This document shows, piece by piece, positions 2,492-10,127 of a stretch of 10,127 bases of DNA (the stretch's first letter is position 1; each line of letters starts with the position of its first letter). The notes beneath the pieces were generated by a model. The model saw nothing but the letters and a program-made list of their open reading frames with translations, was not told where the DNA came from and did not search any database. This DNA comes from a virus (Duplodnaviria > Heunggongvirae > Uroviricota > Caudoviricetes), in the IMG/VR virus record IMGVR_UViG_2778261152_000007; one strand, written 5' to 3'. The translations under genes and the position numbers were made by a program.

Positions 2492-2743
2492 TTAGTCCTG
2501 ATTTTTATCCACCCTGAGTAGTTCGCGCAGAGCAAAGGCATCCCCTTTTCTGGCAAGCTTAAACAATGCCGCTCGTAACTCGGCTTCACCTTTCGCTCTG
2601 CCCTTACGGATGGCCGCATAAAAATCTGTCATTGCTTCCCGATTTTCTTTCAGTCGGTTCAGATCAACATCCAGAACGTCAGCGATTTGTTGTGCAGTCA
2701 TCCGGCACGCTGCCAGAGACTCGACTTTCGAATACGGAATCAT
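2492..2743 (-). CDS. Small helix-turn-helix protein (83 aa), possibly packaging-associated DNA-binding protein
   Basis: ATG at 2743 preceded by GGGGGTGA (near-consensus Shine-Dalgarno). TAA stop at 2492 lies 3 nt before the terS ATG (coupled). HTH-like segment MTAQQIADVLDVDLNRLKE. Overlaps the upstream gene's 3' end by 65 nt. Confidence 0.6.
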   Translation of the reverse strand: MIPYSKVESLAACRMTAQQIADVLDVDLNRLKENREAMTDFYAAIRKGRAKGEAELRAALFKLARKGDAFALRELLRVDKNQD

Positions 2744-3611
2744 TTGTCACCCCCATTGATATGCAGGGTGTCTTCTTCCTGTATTTTTCGTGAAGGATTT
2801 TTACTGCAGCGTTGTTCCAGGTGACCTGATGGTGAATGCGTTTATGGCTGGCACCCATCAGTGAGATTTTTACGCACGACGGCGCATACATGACGGAGTA
2901 AAAACTTTTAACGTAGGTTCCGGAATCCAGATACAGCTCGGTCATTCCGCCGCTGTTTTTCTGCGTCTGTTTCTGCCCTAACTGGACAGCACCGATCGTC
3001 ATAAACAATTCACCACAGCGACCGAGATTCGTGTACGTATTCACATCCTCGTTAATGCGCCCCATGAATGAGAACGGTCGATCAACCGAACAGATAAAGC
3101 TGTTCATTGCCTTGCGTTTCACCCACGAAGCATGGCCGCCATTGTCACCAAGAAAATCCCCGCCCTGCGACATAGCGATGGAAAGAGCAGGTATTGATTC
3201 GTAGTACGCCAGCATTTCAGAAAGGATCGCATCCAGTTTCCTTATCGGAAAATAGGCCTGGTCATAGTTGCGATCCACCCGAAACTGGAACTCGTGATAA
3301 TCATCATCGAGCTGAATGAAGTATTTACACCCGACCAGTTTTGCCAGGTCGAAACAGGCATTACGGGCGTAAAAAATTGAGCGGCGGTCACAGAAATTAT
3401 CGGCTTCGTCAAAACGACTGGCGATATCGGCTTTGGAAAACACCAGCACCTGTTCACCAAATTCAGCCATGTACTGATTCCGTGTCTTATCTTCATCATC
3501 AACAACGATAAAAATTTTCCCGGTATAGCCAGCACGACGCAACGTCCGGTAAGTCAGAACTTTGTCCGGTCGCCCGTGAGTCAGAATAAAGGCGCAAAAA
3601 TCATCACGCAT
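2679..3611 (-). CDS. GT-A fold family-2-like glycosyltransferase (soluble, 310 aa from preferred start)
   Basis: Motifs KIFIVVDDEDK and FYARNACFDLAKLVGCKYFIQLDDDY match the GT2 hallmark (hhhhDDxS ... ARNxG ... hhhhDxDD). Preferred ATG at 3611 has GAGGAGGAGGA immediately upstream and overlaps the ParB-like stop by 8 nt. No C-terminal hydrophobic segment. Confidence 0.7.
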   Translation of the reverse strand: MRDDFCAFILTHGRPDKVLTYRTLRRAGYTGKIFIVVDDEDKTRNQYMAEFGEQVLVFSKADIASRFDEADNFCDRRSIFYARNACFDLAKLVGCKYFIQLDDDYHEFQFRVDRNYDQAYFPIRKLDAILSEMLAYYESIPALSIAMSQGGDFLGDNGGHASWVKRKAMNSFICSVDRPFSFMGRINEDVNTYTNLGRCGELFMTIGAVQLGQKQTQKNSGGMTELYLDSGTYVKSFYSVMYAPSCVKISLMGASHKRIHHQVTWNNAAVKILHEKYRKKTPCISMGVTNDSVFESRVSGSVPDDCTTNR

Positions 3612-4395
3612 ATTCCTCCTCCTCACCACCATGCATGATCTCCACCATGCGCTGCGTCATCCGGACAAATCCATTTTCAATAGCCTGCTGATAATCAATG
3701 ATCACCAGCGCCGACTCCTCGAAAAAACACTGAATTTCAGAGGGGGCGTGAGCGTAATAGTCCGCAATTCTGCTGAAATTAAACACCGTGTGACGTTCTG
3801 CCGCACACAGGAGGAATTTCTCAATATCAGGCTCAAGGGACGCCGAACGTATCCGGCTGATCAGCTCCTGAGTTTTCGTATCGTCGTACAGTTCACTGAT
3901 ATCCGGTTTACCGCCCGACGGCTCATAAACAGGCGTATCAATTTTCGTCGTATACGGCTCCTCCTCATTTCCTGTACCGGGCAAAACATCCGTCAACAGT
4001 TCATCAATTTCTGTCGGGATGAAGCCTGTCAGGGAGACATCAAAATCAGCATTGATTAGGTCCGACAGCTCCATCCGCAACAGATCTTCATCCCAGCCAG
4101 CATTCATCGGCAGGCGATTATCTGCCAGGCGGTACGCCTTTTTCTGCTCATCCGTCAGGCCAGACAGAACAATGACCGGAACAGAATCCATTTTGAGCAT
4201 TTCAGCCGCCATAACACGACCGTGACCCGCAATAATTTCGCCCTTTTCGTCAATCAGCACCGGATTAGTCCAGCCGAATTGCTTAATACTTTCTACCAGT
4301 TGTGCCACCTGCTCAGGGCTGTGCGTCCTGGCGTTGTGCGCATACGGTGACAATTCTTGTAATGGGCGATAGACTATCTTTAATTTCTCGCTCAT
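3604..4395 (-). CDS. ParB/sulfiredoxin-like nuclease-domain protein (263 aa) with uncharacterised acidic C-terminal domain
   Basis: N-terminal IVYRPLQELSPYAHNARTH...IIAGHGRVMAA...KKAYRLADNRL is the ParB N-domain signature; the linker FDVSLTGFIPTEIDELL follows. No methyltransferase motifs in the C-terminal ~130 aa. ATG at 4395, TGA at 3604. Confidence 0.85.
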   Translation of the reverse strand: MSEKLKIVYRPLQELSPYAHNARTHSPEQVAQLVESIKQFGWTNPVLIDEKGEIIAGHGRVMAAEMLKMDSVPVIVLSGLTDEQKKAYRLADNRLPMNAGWDEDLLRMELSDLINADFDVSLTGFIPTEIDELLTDVLPGTGNEEEPYTTKIDTPVYEPSGGKPDISELYDDTKTQELISRIRSASLEPDIEKFLLCAAERHTVFNFSRIADYYAHAPSEIQCFFEESALVIIDYQQAIENGFVRMTQRMVEIMHGGEEEEYA

Positions 4396-4532: not shown

Positions 4533-5990
4533 TTAGGAGCGCCAAAAAAAACCTGAAAACAATATAATAACAGGATAAATTTCAAGGCGACCAAGAATCA
4601 TAGCTATGCACATTAAACATTTTGCAATGTCATTAAGCACTCCGAATGACGATGCAGTAGCCCCAAAACCTAATCCCATATTATTAATACATGCAGCCAC
4701 TGTTGCAAATGATGTAAGAAAATCATATCCCATACCATTTAACACCAGTATAAAAAACACCGTGAAGAGAGTATAAAGAAAAAAGAAACTCCATACAGAC
4801 CTCATTACACGATCTGTAACTATCTTCCCTCCTACATTTACACTCAACAACGCTCTGGGATGAGAAAGCTGATTTATCTCGTGTTTGCTTTGTTTGAAAA
4901 GTATAAGAAATCGAAGTGACTTAATTCCACCACAAGTTGAACCTATACATCCCCCAAAGAAACTTGACAACAGCAAAAACACTATCGTGTGCGTGGGCCA
5001 ACTTGCATAATCCTGCGTAGCTAAACCATTATCAGTGAGCATGGAGCTGGCAAGAAAAAACGAATGAATAAAACTTCCATGCAAGTCATACATACCTATA
5101 TGCCAGACCTGGAAAGAGGTAACAATGATCACCCCTAAGGCTATTAACAGAAAGAAACGAAGTTCAATATCTCTGATTAAAGGTTTTATCGTTTTCCTGC
5201 TAATAACAATATACCAAAGAGTGAAGTTGAAAGCCGATAGCAGGGAAAAAGAACCAGCCACCAGCTCAACCAAATAGTTATTAAAATATCCGATACTCTC
5301 GCTATGAGTTGAGAAACCACCAAGCGAAACTGTGGAAATCCCGTGACAAATAGCATCAAACAAAGGCATTCCTGCAAGTCTATAACAGACAATACAAGCA
5401 ATACCTAATAAAGAATAAGTTATCCACAGTGTCCGTGACGTATCGGCCAGGCGGGGAGTGAGTTTGTCATCCTTAAATGGCCCCGGCATTTCTGACTGAT
5501 AAAGCTTTGCACCACCAATACCCAATAATGGCAATACAGCAACCGCCAGAACAATAACTCCTAAACCACCTATAAAATTTAACTGTGACCGATAGTACAA
5601 ATATGCCCGAGGTAATGAACTAACATCATCAATTACAGTTGCTCCTGTTGTTGTTATTCCAGAAACCCCTTCAAACAGAGCATCAATGAACGTTAAATTA
5701 AGTTCTGAGTCAATCCATAAAGGGAATGCACTAATAACAGAAAACAAAATCCAAAACATTACAATTATAATAAACCCATCACGGGTACGTAATTGAATGC
5801 CAGATTTCTTAGTTGTATACCACGCTCCGCCACCAATGCAAAAAAATATAACGAAAGTTATAAAGAAAACGAACAGGCTTTTTTCTTTATAAAACAATGC
5901 TACAACCATTGGTGGCAACATTGAAAGACTATAGAGCCAAACCAGGAACCCACACATATGAGTAACAACTCTTACATGAGATGTATTCAT
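4533..5990 (-). CDS. trkG: TrkG-type potassium uptake protein (TrkH/TrkG family), prophage moron
   Basis: 485-aa multi-pass membrane protein starting MNTSHVRVVTHMCGFLVW, with the conserved GxTTTGATV and GGxGSTxGG selectivity-filter-like motifs. Matches my memory of Rac prophage TrkG of E. coli K-12. The track ORF begins at an upstream TTG (6008); the ATG at 5990 is preferred. The gene is visibly AT-rich compared with its neighbours. Confidence 0.9.
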   Translation of the reverse strand: MNTSHVRVVTHMCGFLVWLYSLSMLPPMVVALFYKEKSLFVFFITFVIFFCIGGGAWYTTKKSGIQLRTRDGFIIIVMFWILFSVISAFPLWIDSELNLTFIDALFEGVSGITTTGATVIDDVSSLPRAYLYYRSQLNFIGGLGVIVLAVAVLPLLGIGGAKLYQSEMPGPFKDDKLTPRLADTSRTLWITYSLLGIACIVCYRLAGMPLFDAICHGISTVSLGGFSTHSESIGYFNNYLVELVAGSFSLLSAFNFTLWYIVISRKTIKPLIRDIELRFFLLIALGVIIVTSFQVWHIGMYDLHGSFIHSFFLASSMLTDNGLATQDYASWPTHTIVFLLLSSFFGGCIGSTCGGIKSLRFLILFKQSKHEINQLSHPRALLSVNVGGKIVTDRVMRSVWSFFFLYTLFTVFFILVLNGMGYDFLTSFATVAACINNMGLGFGATASSFGVLNDIAKCLMCIAMILGRLEIYPVIILFSGFFWRS

Positions 5991-6127
5991 ATCTAAATAT
6001 TCTTTCAATTATAACCACCTTGCTGCAATATTATGATTATACTGTATAAAATTTAACTCCTCTTAGATCTTACTTCACTGTTCCTTATGAAACAATCATC
6101 AAAATGAATCATATTGTAGTTAAGATT

Positions 6128-6592
6128 TTACTTTAAACACTGCTCGGTTATGTATTGCTGAGCACCTTCAAGTTGGGCCTGCATCATTACCAGTCGTTCC
6201 CGGAGGGTGAAATAATCCCGTTCAGCGGTGTCTGCCAGTCGGGGGGAGGCTGCATTATCCACGCCGGAGGCGGTGGTGGCTTCACGCACTGACTGACAGA
6301 CTGCTTTGATGTGCAACCGACGACGACCAGCGGCAACATCATCACGCAGAACATCATTTTCAGCTTTCGCATCAGCTAACTCCTTCGTGTATTTTGCATC
6401 GAGCGCAGCAACATCACGCTGACGCATCTGCATGTCAGTAATTGCCGCGTTCGCCAGCTTCAGTTCTCTGGCATTTTTGTCGCGCTGTTCTTTGTAGGCG
6501 ATGGCGTTATCACGGTAATGATTAACACCCCATGACAGGCAGACGACGATGCAGATAACCAGAGCGGAGATAATCGCGGTTACTCTGTTCAT
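6128..6592 (-). CDS. Rz: Rz i-spanin (lysis)
   Basis: Translation from the ATG at 6592, [21 protein letters not shown]...[14 protein letters not shown], is close to lambda Rz. Start overlaps the endolysin stop (ATGA). The track ORF starts at an upstream GTG. Confidence 0.9.
6187..6372 (-). CDS. Rz1: Rz1 o-spanin lipoprotein, embedded in the +1 frame of Rz
   Basis: [53 protein letters not shown] has the lipobox VVGC and proline-rich region typical of lambda Rz1. Lies wholly inside Rz. Confidence 0.85.
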
Positions 6593-7086
6593 TGCTGACC
6601 CCACAAACAGATTTCACGCTCAATCTCACGACGAGTCATGAGACCTTTCCATTGCTTACCGCCAGCATATGTCCAGCGACGTAGCTGATCACATGCGCCT
6701 TTGATATCGCCCTGGTTTATTTTGCGAAGAAGCGTCGATGTTCTGAAATTGCCAGCACCCACGTTGTAAACGAATGAGTAAAGAGCGCCGCGCGTTGTTT
6801 CCGGTATATCGACTTTGATGTACGGGTTAATTTGTCTGGCGACCGTGGCAAGGTCTTTATTCAGGAGGGCTTTGCATTCTGCTTTGGTATACGTTTTACC
6901 GAGCATGATGTCTTTTCCTGTATGCCCGTGACATACAGTCCATACACCAACAATATCTTTGTATGGTATGTAGCTGACACCTTCCAGACCATCGTTACCA
7001 CTTGGGCCAGTGATTAACACTGATGCTATAGCAATTGCTCCGCCACCAATAGCAGCAGCAACGGCTTTTCGTAATGATGGAGGCAT
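6589..7086 (-). CDS. R: SAR endolysin (phage 21 R21-type lysozyme)
   Basis: 165-aa translation [44 protein letters not shown] has an N-terminal Gly/Ala-rich signal-anchor-release segment and a T4-lysozyme-like core. Near-identical to R21 as I recall it. Its ATG overlaps the holin stop (TAATG). Confidence 0.95.
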
Positions 7087-7301
7087 TATTCACCTCTCGC
7101 AGCCTTGCGCTTATCTTCTTTAATCTTGAAATAAAGGTTTGTCAGGTACGTCAGCAGGCCAAATACCAAGCTACCCAGCACACCTATTGCTGCCCACTGT
7201 GAGGGCGTGACTTTATCGAGCAGCTGTAAAAACCAGTAGCCAGCACTGCCTGCGGAGGTGCCGTAGGCAATGCCCGTTGTTAACTTATCCATGGATTTCA
7301 T
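7086..7301 (-). CDS. S: Pinholin (phage 21 S21-type class II holin) with dual-start motif
   Basis: 71-aa [71 protein letters not shown] is near-identical to S21 from memory. Met1 and Met4 give the antiholin/holin starts. Strong Shine-Dalgarno GGAGGTGAGG upstream. Confidence 0.95.
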
Positions 7302-7395
7302 AGCCTCACCTCCGCAAATAACGGATGGTGTACACGGTTCGGAACGAAGAGGAAAGGTATAGAAGTTACATTAGCGTAAGGCTTGAACATCTATT

Positions 7396-7427
7396 CAAAA
7401 AGAAAAACGCCGCGATTATTCTGGCGT
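7396..7427 (-). terminator. Weak candidate intrinsic terminator between the AraC-family gene and the holin
   Basis: On the minus strand, a short stem ACGCC/GGCGT (7407..7411 and 7423..7427) with an 11-nt loop is followed by UUUUUCUUUUU. The stem is short, so this is low confidence. Confidence 0.25.
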
Positions 7428-7488
7428 AGCTGAAAGCATCATACAATTATCAAATACGAAAATTACAAAATCATTAAAACGCATCACG

Positions 7489-8220
7489 TTACATCATGTC
7501 TTTTTCTAAAAAAAATCTTGATGAATATTGATGGGGAGGAACACCAAAATACCTTCTGAAAACACTTACAAAATATGACGTGTTTTCATAACCGCATATC
7601 TCAGCAACTTTTCCAACAGAATATAAATTGTAGCTTAATAACCTTTCCGCCATCACCATTCGCTCTTCAAGAATTAACTTACTAAATGATAAGCCTTCGT
7701 GCTTTAATTTTCTTTTTAACAGACTTTCACTCAGATACAGTCTTGAAGATATATCACAAAGTCTCCATGCTGCAGATATATCCGTGTGAATAATAGCCTT
7801 AACTTTACTTCCTAAACTATTAAGATATCCAAATAAAAAACTTTGCACTATTTTCTCTGAAGATAAGATAGCAAGACATGCAAGTGATATTTGATTTCTA
7901 ACAAAATCCACAGTTCTGCCATCACAATTCAAGCATGCAATCAAGTTCTTTAACAATGAAAAATCTTCACATTCCACCATCAAGTATGCCGGATAAAACC
8001 TTCTTACAGAAAAAGGTGAGAGTGTGTTGCTTTTAAAGAAATCATTAACTGTTTTTTCTTCAACATCTACGATCATTACATGATCTATATTTGATGAAAA
8101 AAAATCTTTTAAATTGTAATCAATGAGAACAGCACTTCCTTTTTTAAACAAAATATCTTCTTTACCAATTCGGACATCAAACGAGTTCAACACCAAAATG
8201 ATAGAACATATGTATAGCAT
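7489..8220 (-). CDS. AraC/XylS-family transcriptional regulator, AppY/YdeO/GadX-like
   Basis: C-terminal ESLLKRKLKHEGLSFSKLILEERMVMAERLL...VAEICGYENTSYFVSVFRRYFGVPPHQY is the AraC-type double-HTH signature. The N-terminus resembles AppY from memory. Preferred ATG at 8220 has AGGTGG 5 nt upstream; the track ORF starts at a GTG at 8229. The gene is very AT-rich (about 30% G+C in a line counted by hand). Confidence 0.85.
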   Translation of the reverse strand: MLYICSIILVLNSFDVRIGKEDILFKKGSAVLIDYNLKDFFSSNIDHVMIVDVEEKTVNDFFKSNTLSPFSVRRFYPAYLMVECEDFSLLKNLIACLNCDGRTVDFVRNQISLACLAILSSEKIVQSFLFGYLNSLGSKVKAIIHTDISAAWRLCDISSRLYLSESLLKRKLKHEGLSFSKLILEERMVMAERLLSYNLYSVGKVAEICGYENTSYFVSVFRRYFGVPPHQYSSRFFLEKDMM

Positions 8221-8570
8221 ATTATCCACCTGATATCATTGGGGTTACACCAGGTAAGTATAGGTGGAAAATCAATATTCGCCAGTTCAACAATAAGGAA
8301 AATTTCATTGCATACAAGTATAAAATTATGTATTTAACTCACAAAGACAAATTATTAAACCAATCTGTTATATTATATATAGCTGCGTGGAATCATAATA
8401 TTATATATTTTGACTGGCATGTTTACTAACTTTAAGTTGCATCTCAATTGTTTCTTCAGCGTAAACAGAGTTTTTATACAAACTGACACTCTGGGTATCA
8501 TAGTGTAGTTTTTACGATTGTAAATATCCTGCATGCAGGAACTCATCCTTTTGGATGATATCGCATACAA

Positions 8571-9530
8571 TTAATTTACCATCAGTCTTAGAGCCAGTTC
8601 GTCCGGATAGGGATCGAAGTAATTCTGTGTAAGCAAGTAATCATTAGGATACTCACCCAGATAATGCTTCAGCAGAGTCAACGGCGCAAGAAGAGGTAAT
8701 GTGCCAGAACGATAGTTAAGTATAACCTCGCTCAACTCTTTACGCTGGCGTGTACTTAAGTAGTTACTAAAATACCCCTGTATATGCATCAGCACATTCG
8801 TGTGATTTTTACGTGATGCAGGTTTTCTGAGAATCGCCATCAGCTTATCACGATACACCTCAAAGTATGATTCAAGGTCCGCCCACTCGTGTATTGCAGC
8901 CACAAATGGTCCCATATCTTTATAGCCTGCCTGACTATGCGCCAACAACTGAAGCTTATAACGACTATGAAAAGCTAATAACTCTCTTCTTGATAATTTC
9001 TCCTTGTAAAGGTGATTGAGCTCATGCAAAGCAAAAACTCTTTCAACAAAATTCTCACGAAGCACTGGATCATGTAATCGCCCATCCTCTTCAACCGGTA
9101 GCCAGGAAAACTTTTCCATCAAAGTGCTCGTAAATAGTCCCACTCCATCTTTACGACCTCGATTACCATTTTCATCATAGACACGCACGCGCTCCATGCC
9201 ACAGCTGGGAGATTTAGCACAAACCACAAACCCCGATACATCCTTTAATTTGTCCATATAAGAACGACTAAACTCTGTCATTCTCTCTGTCACATCCTCA
9301 TTCTGGTCGTGGCTGAAACACATCCGTATATTTCCTTGCGTCGAGCGCACAAGACGTAGAGCAGGACGCGGAACTGGCAGCCCTATAGCCATTTCCGGAC
9401 ATACTGGTCTGAATGTTACCCATTCCACTAATTTGTCCATTAAAAAGTCAGCTCTTTTGTGACCACCATCAAAACGAACAGCAGAACCGGCCAAACAACC
9501 GCTGATTCCAATCACAGGTTTTTTTATCAT
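8571..9530 (-). CDS. DUF523 (TudS-like, putative [4Fe-4S] thiouracil desulfidase) fused to DUF1722 (YbgA-like) protein
   Basis: 319-aa ORF. ATG at 9530 with AGGGGGAG upstream. N-terminal VIGISGCLAGSAVRFDGG, PVCPE and KSPSCG supply three conserved Cys as in TudS-type proteins. The C-terminal half resembles YbgA/DUF1722. Domain assignment is from memory. Confidence 0.8.
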   Translation of the reverse strand: MIKKPVIGISGCLAGSAVRFDGGHKRADFLMDKLVEWVTFRPVCPEMAIGLPVPRPALRLVRSTQGNIRMCFSHDQNEDVTERMTEFSRSYMDKLKDVSGFVVCAKSPSCGMERVRVYDENGNRGRKDGVGLFTSTLMEKFSWLPVEEDGRLHDPVLRENFVERVFALHELNHLYKEKLSRRELLAFHSRYKLQLLAHSQAGYKDMGPFVAAIHEWADLESYFEVYRDKLMAILRKPASRKNHTNVLMHIQGYFSNYLSTRQRKELSEVILNYRSGTLPLLAPLTLLKHYLGEYPNDYLLTQNYFDPYPDELALRLMVN

Positions 9531-9722: not shown

Positions 9723-10055
9723 ATGAAGTTATGGCCTGTGTTGACTGGCATTGCACTCTCTTTCACTCTTATAGCATGTAAGGCCCCGACACCACCTAAA
9801 GGTGTGCAGCCGATTACAAATTTTGACGCCAACCGCTACCTCGGAAAATGGTATGAAATAGCTCGCCTCGAGAACCGGTTCGAACGTGGTCTGGAACAGG
9901 TCAGCGCTACTTATGGAAAACGGAACGACGGAGGGATTCGTGTACTTAACCGTGGATACGATCCAACGAAAAATAAATGGAGCGAGAGCGAAGGTAAAGC
10001 ATACTTTACTGGAGATACTAAAACTGCAGCATTGAAGGTTTCGTTTTTTGGGTAA
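9723..10055 (+). pseudogene. blc: Blc-like outer-membrane lipocalin lipoprotein, truncated after codon 110 by IS1 (stop codon supplied by the IS1 terminus)
   Basis: MKLWPVLTGIALSFTLIACKAPTPPKG...NFDANRYLGKWYEIARLENRFERGL...SEGKAYFTGDTKTAALKVSFFG aligns with the first ~110 residues of E. coli Blc (lipobox LIAC). The frame ends at TAA 10053..10055, inside the IS1 end that starts at 10051. Full-length lipocalins are about 170-180 aa. Confidence 0.85.
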
Positions 10056-10127
10056 TGACTCCAACTTATTGATAGTGTTTTATGTTCAGATAATGCCCGA
10101 TGACTTTGTCATGCAGCTCCACCGATT
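10051..10127 (-). mobile_element. IS1: IS1 insertion sequence, second copy, IRR terminus (continues beyond window end)
   Basis: 10051..10127 reads GGTAATGACTCCAACTTATTGATAGTGTTTTATGTTCAGATAATGCCCGATGACTTTGTCATGCAGCTCCACCGATT, the reverse complement of the IS1 right end. It has the same orientation as the copy at 1..402. Confidence 0.95.

Follow-up and report, generated by a model that had tools for sequence, protein, structure and literature searches.

AraC/XylS-family transcription factors carried by prophages, including AppY, PatE, PsrA, and PsrB, have established connections to the acid-resistance and virulence circuits of Escherichia coli. PatE activates gadB, gadC, gadE, and hdeAB, activation of gadE/hdeA is a property also of PsrB, and the prophage-encoded secretion regulators PsrA and PsrB of enterohemorrhagic E. 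coli (EHEC) work through GadE and YhiF (reviewed in PMC10877973). PsrB and PatE likewise act on the AR2 acid-resistance genes, and AppY, which is itself prophage-borne, is subject to H-NS (PMC10057817). The psrA gene is ecs1087 of EHEC strain Sakai and resides in prophage Sp4 (PMC13502914, 2026). Described here is a relative of these proteins that is encoded at 7489..8220 on the minus strand of a 10,127-nucleotide (nt) stretch of Caudoviricetes DNA (IMG/VR record IMGVR_UViG_2778261152_000007). The whole stretch is termed the window, and the region of principal interest, 7302–8570, comprises the regulator gene, its upstream leader, and the spacer that separates it from a holin gene. The regulator probably is a self-contained lysogenic-conversion cargo gene, or moron, of lambdoid phages that occupies the variable slot between the Q antiterminator gene with the late promoter and the holin gene. 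This assignment is based on its promoter-like site, open reading frame (ORF), terminator, foreign base composition, and presence/absence polymorphism.

The ORF that spans 7489–8229 (minus strand) matched PF12833 at 1.1e-14 (residues 161–237) and PF00165 at 2.1e-11, and the product possesses the C-terminal DNA-binding domain of ~100 amino acids (aa) with two helix-turn-helix motifs that defines AraC/XylS proteins. The start codon is the ATG at 8220, giving a protein of 243 aa, and not the GTG at 8229, because nearly all homologs are 243 aa in length and begin M-x-x-I-C-S, and because a Shine-Dalgarno sequence is located just upstream of the ATG. This sequence, read as AGGTGGA at 8225..8231 (minus strand) and as AGGTGG or GGGTGG across the clade, encompasses the GTG at 8229. 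The family alignment begins at M-x-x-x-C-S-V. PHROG 1450, a phage family of unknown function, matched the regulator over its full length (1e-104), and the RefSeq label is only "helix-turn-helix domain-containing protein".

In BLASTP comparisons the regulator was 53% identical over 235 aa to PatE (Z0321 of EDL933), of which it is a paralog, 38.7% identical to PsrA (Sakai ECs1087), 34% to GadW, 32% to both AppY and YdeO, and 30% to EnvY; GadX was matched in the C-terminal domain only. The best NCBIfam model was that of YdeO, which aligned over the full length with 125.7 bits compared to an equivalog cut-off of 348, and the GadX model produced 85.1 compared to 500. These scores are so far under the cut-offs that a YdeO or GadX equivalog is ruled out. 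Orthology with AppY is excluded by the low identity and by gene position, as appY follows tfaD and tfaX in DLP12 and the regulator precedes a holin gene. The similarity to PatE is greatest in the DNA-binding domain, which is 72% identical, with recognition helix 1 the same at 11 of 12 residues. Full-length homology to PatE and PsrA, together with a phage or prophage context in every locus that was examined, places the protein in the prophage-borne PatE/Psr group. Homology likewise extends over the entire length of GadW, AppY, and YdeO. The regulator as predicted from sequence is a two-domain AraC/XylS member of the PatE/PsrA/GadW/AppY/YdeO group. Thus, the preliminary description of an AppY/YdeO-like protein was correct at the level of the group, but PatE, and not AppY or YdeO, is the nearest characterized relative.

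The AlphaFold model of the regulator has a mean predicted local distance difference test score (pLDDT) of 63.6 and is confident in the C-terminal domain only. The modeled C-terminal domain superposes on the DNA-binding domain of GadX with a template modeling (TM) score of 0.88 and a root-mean-square deviation of 1.4 Å. The best full-length Foldseek matches of the model were Rns, CsvR, and ToxT, and the family profile matched residues 15–234 of CsvR, 67–234 of Rns, and 24–233 of ToxT.

The regulator gene was described initially as very AT-rich and as placed just upstream of the holin gene, both of which were borne out. Its G+C content is 31.4% (26% at third codon positions) and 187 bp separate it from the holin gene. 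The G+C contents of the neighboring holin, lysozyme, and ybgA-like genes are 48.6, 47.4, and 43.4%, respectively, with values of 47–52% for lysis genes and 43–46% for the other cargo genes. The contrast between 31% G+C in the regulator and 43–49% in adjoining genes argues for a foreign origin of the former. The A+T content of the regulator region is 68.6%.

The interval between Q and the holin gene S is a classical cargo site of lambdoid phages which harbors stx in Stx phages, nmpC in DLP12, and cspB/cspF in Qin. The inference that the regulator occupies this slot was confirmed in phages and prophages related to the window. The cassette is present in the active phage IdasGreatGrand, where nucleotide identity is 99%, and also in Jouyvirus 1H12 and a group of 'Lambda_ev' phages (87% nucleotide and 82% amino-acid identity). 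In both IdasGreatGrand and 1H12 the regulator and Q share a strand, with Q ~2.2 kb upstream, and the gene order in these phages and in related prophages is Q, a tR'-like terminator, an oppositely oriented lipocalin gene, a ybgA-like gene, the regulator, and the holin gene. In strains HH194M and LF3-1 the lambda attachment site, flanked by bioA/ybhB and ybhC, is occupied by a decayed lambdoid prophage in which Q is complete and again ~2.2 kb upstream on the same strand (HH194M) or is truncated (LF3-1). Among 80 IMG/VR loci the regulator is directly upstream of the holin gene without exception, and is preceded by the ybgA-like and lipocalin genes in 75; the remaining five are truncated. In two more distant homologous loci, L092 and L093 (64 and 56% identity, respectively), the regulator stands alone directly between Q and the holin gene, and the Q genes belong to other Q families (PF03589, PF06323). 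DLP12 shares the Q and lysis genes of the present system and holds nmpC in the interval, with homology ending 18 nt before the Q stop codon and resuming 11 nt before the holin ATG. The same slot therefore contains nmpC in DLP12, the regulator alone in L092 and L093, and three genes in phages of the window type, which is the presence/absence pattern of a moron. The placement of the regulator at a moron site in the preliminary description stands, but three genes make up the cargo, the other two being the lipocalin and ybgA-like genes.

In IdasGreatGrand, 1H12, and HH194M, Q is succeeded by a short interval with weak promoter-like hexamers and then by a strong hairpin, AGCCAGCC...GGCTGGTT, and a T-run. 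This interval has the layout expected for a pR'-tR' unit. The span from the Q stop codon to the tR'-like terminator contains several weak hexamer pairs, none of which is decisive as pR'. The Q protein is distantly related to Q21 (E = 2e-8 with PDB 6P18). Thus, in related prophages and phages the regulator is on the late strand, downstream of Q and the putative pR' and tR' elements and upstream of S. The window differs in that no Q gene is visible and an IS1 copy that begins at 10051 separates the cassette from whatever is upstream. Coupling of the regulator to late transcription is uncertain in the window because the cassette is separated by this IS1 from where Q/pR' would be expected. In strain 2EC1 an identical junction of the lipocalin gene with IS1 marks the boundary of a composite element, IS1-corA-ysgD-IS1, that is inserted in the prophage, with Q ~3.6 kb beyond.

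The distribution of the region was surveyed by comparing nucleotides 7302–8570 with 5426 complete E. coli genomes. Matches were present in 1085 genomes, in 873 of which at least 80% of the region was covered (16–20% of genomes). The copies nearly all are single and chromosomal, and every context examined was a prophage. In a scan of one genome per bacterial species the sole occurrence of the clade was on a 3.2-kb contig in a metagenome bin labeled Candidatus Nanosynbacter, which is taken to be mis-binned. The species scan and the exclusively prophage contexts rule out a core-genome regulator, and the earlier view of the gene as accessory is upheld. E. coli B (ATCC 11303; L101, 7191–11781) encodes a 237-aa variant of the regulator in a Qin-like prophage with the same gene order; the ybgA-like gene is split by IS3 in this strain and an intact Q gene is upstream.

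A promoter-like site specific to the regulator is situated ~36 nt upstream of the ATG (8257..8285, minus strand), and consists of a −35 hexamer CTGGCG (8285–8280), a 17-nt spacer, and a −10 hexamer TATACT (8262–8257). The −10 element, as either TATACT or TATAAT, is conserved in position ~33–38 nt before the ATG in 10 homolog loci that include patE and psrA. The −35 elements in the 10 loci are TTGGCA, TTGGTA, of the ATGGCA/CTGGCG type, or TTGATG, and are located ~17–19 nt upstream of the −10. A promoter scan called the proximal site in L093 (TTGGCA-18-TATACT, 10/12) and in 1H12 (ATGGCA-17-TATACT). A distal promoter-like site, TTTACA-16-TATGAT (8497..8524, minus strand; 10/12 in the scan), would generate a 5' untranslated region (UTR) of ~275 nt. 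The three leader variants share both distal hexamers exactly but differ in the spacer, and the site is the conservation peak of the leader with 90% identity compared to 13–60% in its surroundings. The middle of the leader exhibits 13–50% identity to that of 1H12, with many insertions and deletions (indels).

The regulator also is followed by its own intrinsic terminator (7397..7427, minus strand), which in the intact form comprises a 7-bp stem ACGCCAG/CTGGCGT and a T-run. A terminator scan called this structure in IdasGreatGrand and 1H12 as well as in L093, and homologous hairpins are present in L070 and L093. A terminator belonging to the regulator, as anticipated for a moron, therefore is found across the clade. 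In IdasGreatGrand only two late-strand terminators are located between Q and S, one just after Q and the other just after the regulator. The intact 7-bp stem is present in 41 of the 80 IMG/VR loci (one with a loop change), and 17 loci share with the window a 1-nt deletion in the 3' arm. The decayed HH194M prophage also has this deletion, whereas neither of the two active phages that were examined does. The remainder of the spacer, between the terminator and the holin start (7302..7396, minus strand), includes the holin ribosome-binding site, and its final ~60 nt are 90–97% conserved. The 3'UTR of the regulator (7397–7488) is ~96% identical between the window and 1H12, in comparison with differences of 21–33% at synonymous sites in the adjacent coding sequence. 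However, the L070 variant has a divergent 3'UTR, and conservation throughout the clade is confined to the terminator stem. A 3'UTR-derived small RNA was set aside in view of the L070 divergence, and a recombination mosaic appears a likelier source of the 3'UTR similarity than a functional element.

The conserved promoter-like site and terminator suggest that the regulator is autonomous and not primarily a late gene. The preliminary description envisaged expression both from a dedicated promoter and from the late promoter: the former is suggested by the conserved proximal site, but late expression does not appear to be the principal mode. The alternative is that the regulator mainly is a late-operon gene that, like stx, depends chiefly on pR' and Q antitermination for its expression after induction and acts during lytic growth, either in host reprogramming or in tuning of the lysis genes. 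This explanation accords with the position of the regulator between Q and the lysis genes, with all of them on one strand; with L092 and L093, in which the regulator is the first gene after Q, in L093 also beyond the tR'-like terminator; and with PsrA-like genes, which occupy the same slot ahead of tRNAs and stx2 in an Stx2k phage, and in Sakai Sp4. Nevertheless, a purely late gene has no need of the conserved promoter-like site and terminator. Moreover, patE and the PatE-like genes of mEp332 and ev099 are all located after tail-fiber genes, as is appY in DLP12, and the patE, mEp332, and ev099 copies retain the same proximal promoter-like site despite being outside the late leader. The regulator also remains intact in decayed prophages in which Q is lost or truncated, and characterized relatives act in lysogens (PMC10877973). 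A mainly late gene thus is considered unlikely.

The leader between the ybgA-like stop codon and the regulator ATG (8221..8570, 350 bp, minus strand) was portrayed in the preliminary description as extremely AT-rich and non-coding, except for an implausible ORF with a TTG start. From its sequence the leader indeed is non-coding, although "extremely" is a slight overstatement as its G+C content of 31.4% equals that of the gene. The TTG ORF (8373–8570) has no family match and is broken in 1H12 by indels of 2, 1, 11, and 20 nt, and its dismissal therefore was justified. The companion proposal of a small-RNA locus did not hold. A broader version of this idea, that the leader specifies either a small RNA or a 5'UTR with regulatory structure, for example a Shine-Dalgarno-masking hairpin that controls translation, draws on the distal promoter-like block (8524–8497) as the conservation peak, and on an inverted repeat, TCCACCT (8268–8262)/AGGTGGA (8231–8225), that is kept in three variants despite a differing loop and whose arms are paired in the centroid fold. 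However, no Rfam match was detected in the leader or anywhere in the window at E-values up to 1, a terminator scan of 8221–8570 found none within the leader, and the stability of the leader fold does not exceed that of shuffled sequence (z = −0.32). The anti-Shine-Dalgarno arm also overlaps the spacer and −10 of the proximal site and so would be absent from transcripts that begin there, the repeat is missing from the L092, L093, and patE leaders, and both stems are invariant and hence reveal no covariation. A Shine-Dalgarno-masking hairpin or RNA thermometer accordingly was rejected in view of the shuffled-level fold, the absence of the repeat from distant leaders, and the overlap with the proximal promoter-like site, and the leader-RNA explanation as a whole is regarded as very improbable.

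A further alternative is that the regulator is silent leftover DNA in a defective, IS1-ridden prophage which is heading to a pseudogene and has no present function. AT-rich foreign DNA typically is silenced, and the IS1 copies that flank the segment truncate the terminase and lipocalin genes. The ratio of nonsynonymous to synonymous divergence (dN/dS) of the regulator among three variants is 0.22–0.26, which indicates purifying selection. The ORF is intact in the window and is full length in 65 of the 80 IMG/VR loci, and the regulator is retained in active phages as well as in 16–20% of complete E. coli genomes. Comparison of the window with L070 yielded a dS value of 0.32 for the regulator and 0.045 for ybgA, and local dS values within the regulator gene span 0.11–0.98. 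The contrast in dS between the two genes implies that the regulator module has a history separate from that of its neighbors. Silent decay consequently is possible for the window copy, but not for the family, and overall it is an improbable account of the locus.

A number of observations nonetheless weigh against the interpretation of the regulator as a self-contained cargo gene, certain of which favor silent decay. The −35 hexamer of the proximal site is degenerate in the window, where it matches at 3/6 positions only and the promoter scan makes no call, and promoter-like matches in the region numbered seven compared to 8.8 expected from shuffled sequence. The window terminator is weakened by the 1-nt deletion in the 3' arm, with a calculated folding energy of −8.1 kcal/mol compared to −12.1 kcal/mol for the intact form, and the scan makes no call in the window. 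Early frameshifts are present in ~8 of the 80 IMG/VR copies (~10%), and the HH194M copy also is frameshifted. Base composition is the sole indication of H-NS involvement. The N-terminal sensing domain is 39% identical to that of PatE and is poorly modeled, with pLDDT <50 at residues 70–133, and thus both the signal and the regulon may differ from those of PatE. Finally, a literature search found no paper about the regulator protein. In related searches, the H-NS nucleation motif TCGATAAATT had no match within 7302–8570 and no enrichment in the window, and the GadE binding site (GAD box) was not matched when up to three mismatches were allowed.

If the regulator is a self-contained cargo gene, the features of the sequence suggest how it may operate. 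In a lysogen the gene would be transcribed from its own σ70 promoter ~36 nt before the ATG, possibly aided by a second promoter where the AT-rich leader begins. This expression probably is held low by H-NS, as judged from the 69% A+T content and from the report for appY (PMC10057817). Transcription would be halted by the regulator's own intrinsic terminator such that the downstream lysis genes stay silent. The protein is predicted to bind AT-rich host promoters as an activator or anti-silencer, with the gadE/hdeA acid-resistance regulon as the likeliest targets by analogy with PatE, PsrB, and AppY. At hdeA, PatE and PsrB bind the fragment from −132 to −45. After induction of an intact phage, Q-modified RNA polymerase from pR' would read through both terminators and transcribe the regulator as a by-product. 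This link to late transcription probably is broken or weakened in the window by the upstream IS1. A distinctly unlikely elaboration is that the regulator operates in two modes, being produced at low level from its own promoter in lysogens and also as the first protein of the Q-dependent late transcript. A burst on induction then would reprogram host stress and acid-resistance genes or set lysis timing and, in the subclade that includes the window, the TCCACCT/AGGTGGA hairpin, which would form only in long read-through transcripts, would gate translation.

All phage genes of the window are on the minus strand in the ORF list, and the order in the direction of transcription, right to left, is the IS1 end, the lipocalin gene (plus strand), the ybgA-like gene, the leader, the regulator, the spacer, the holin, lysozyme, and Rz/Rz1 genes, trkG, the ParB-like gene, the glycosyltransferase gene, and the small and large terminase genes. 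The IS1 end at 10051..10127 carries an exact IS1 terminal repeat, with the inverted repeat at 10051–10073. This IS1 truncates the Blc-like lipocalin gene at 10051, leaving 9723..10050 (plus strand; PF08212, NCBIfam Blc subfamily, PHROG 2809) of a gene whose full-length product in IdasGreatGrand and 1H12 is 174 aa. The lipocalin gene is convergent with Q and hence would be antisense to late transcription. The ybgA-like gene (8571..9530, minus strand; PF04463 and PF08349, PHROG 3275) specifies a fusion of 2-thiouracil desulfurase (TudS) and DUF1722. Beyond the regulator, the holin (7086..7301, minus strand) is of the P21 type (class II) and is essD-like, matching PF04971 at 2.2e-35 and carrying the RefSeq label essD in related genomes. 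The holin gene is followed on the same strand by those for lysozyme (6589..7086; PF00959 at 1e-45) and Rz (6128..6604; PF03245 at 4e-53), with Rz1 embedded in Rz (6187..6372, minus strand; ORF list).

Between Rz and the ParB-like gene is trkG (4533..6008, minus strand), which encodes a TrkH-family potassium transporter and has a G+C content of 37.8%. This is a second AT-rich cargo gene, and the same order is found in L093 beside the 56%-identical regulator. A TET-associated glycosyltransferase gene (PF20691, PHROG 842) and the adjoining gene for a protein with a ParB-N domain occupy 2679..4395 (minus strand). The PHROG 842 label is "beta-glucosyl-HMC-alpha-glucosyltransferase", the N-terminus of the ParB-N-domain protein also matches the PADLOC type II methyltransferase model, and the two proteins may form a phage DNA-modification module. 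None of the regulator, ybgA-like, lipocalin, and trkG genes produced a PADLOC match that would point to a defense role. The large terminase subunit gene, which has the small subunit gene alongside, is cut by the second IS1 copy (1–402). The two IS1 copies (1–402 and 10051–10127) are in the same orientation and bracket the entire 9.6-kb segment.

How this locus compares with described systems can be set out by degree of relatedness. PatE, of prophage CP-933H (O-island 8) in EHEC EDL933, is the closest characterized homolog and similarly is prophage-borne, AT-rich, of the same length class, and preceded by a homologous proximal promoter-like site. However, patE is located at the prophage end after tail-fiber and pin genes, and not between Q and S. 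PsrA shares the slot, as psrA is positioned between the Q antiterminator gene ECs1084 of Sp4 and the ileZ-argN-argO tRNAs that precede the lysis region, and the order in phage phiSTEC1575-Stx2k is Q, a PsrA-like regulator gene, tRNAs, and stx2AB. PsrA nevertheless is only 39% identical to the regulator, and the neighbors are tRNAs, an esterase gene, and stx instead of the lipocalin, ybgA-like, and holin genes that are present here. In two reviews psrA (z1789) is assigned to O-island 50 of EDL933; a tblastn search of EDL933 positions 1,615,001–1,690,000, the pot-locus prophage taken as O-island 50 (CP-933N), disclosed no AraC-type gene.

AppY of DLP12 and YdeO, GadW, and GadX of E. coli K-12 possess the same M-x-x-x-C-S-V N-terminus and C-terminal double helix-turn-helix, but identity is 32–34%, appY follows tail-fiber genes, and ydeO, gadW, and gadX are chromosomal. 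Rns, CsvR, and ToxT, for which structures are solved, have the same two-domain fold as indicated by the profile and Foldseek matches. In this case, identity is 17–20% and the fatty-acid pocket of Rns and ToxT is not readable in the low-confidence model of the N-terminal domain.

Compared with classical cargo between Q and S, the regulator cassette sits in the exact nmpC interval of DLP12, has a foreign composition, and belongs to a slot whose content varies among phages that share Q and lysis genes. It differs in that the cargo includes a transcription factor gene with its own terminator just before the holin gene, and in that this gene is part of a three-gene cargo of which the first is antisense to late transcription. 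With its conserved terminator between a presumed lysogen-expressed gene and the holin gene, the locus clearly exemplifies how cargo may be shielded from lethal lysis genes. The regulator is carried by approximately one-sixth of complete E. coli genomes, as well as by E. coli B and by propagatable phages, and hence may be a common, unrecognized source of strain-to-strain differences in stress regulation. Overall, regulators of the PatE/Psr type recur at the two classical cargo sites of lambdoid phages, and the present arrangement is a further example and not a new design. The regulator is an uncharacterized cousin of known prophage regulators, and the current understanding of such systems is unchanged.

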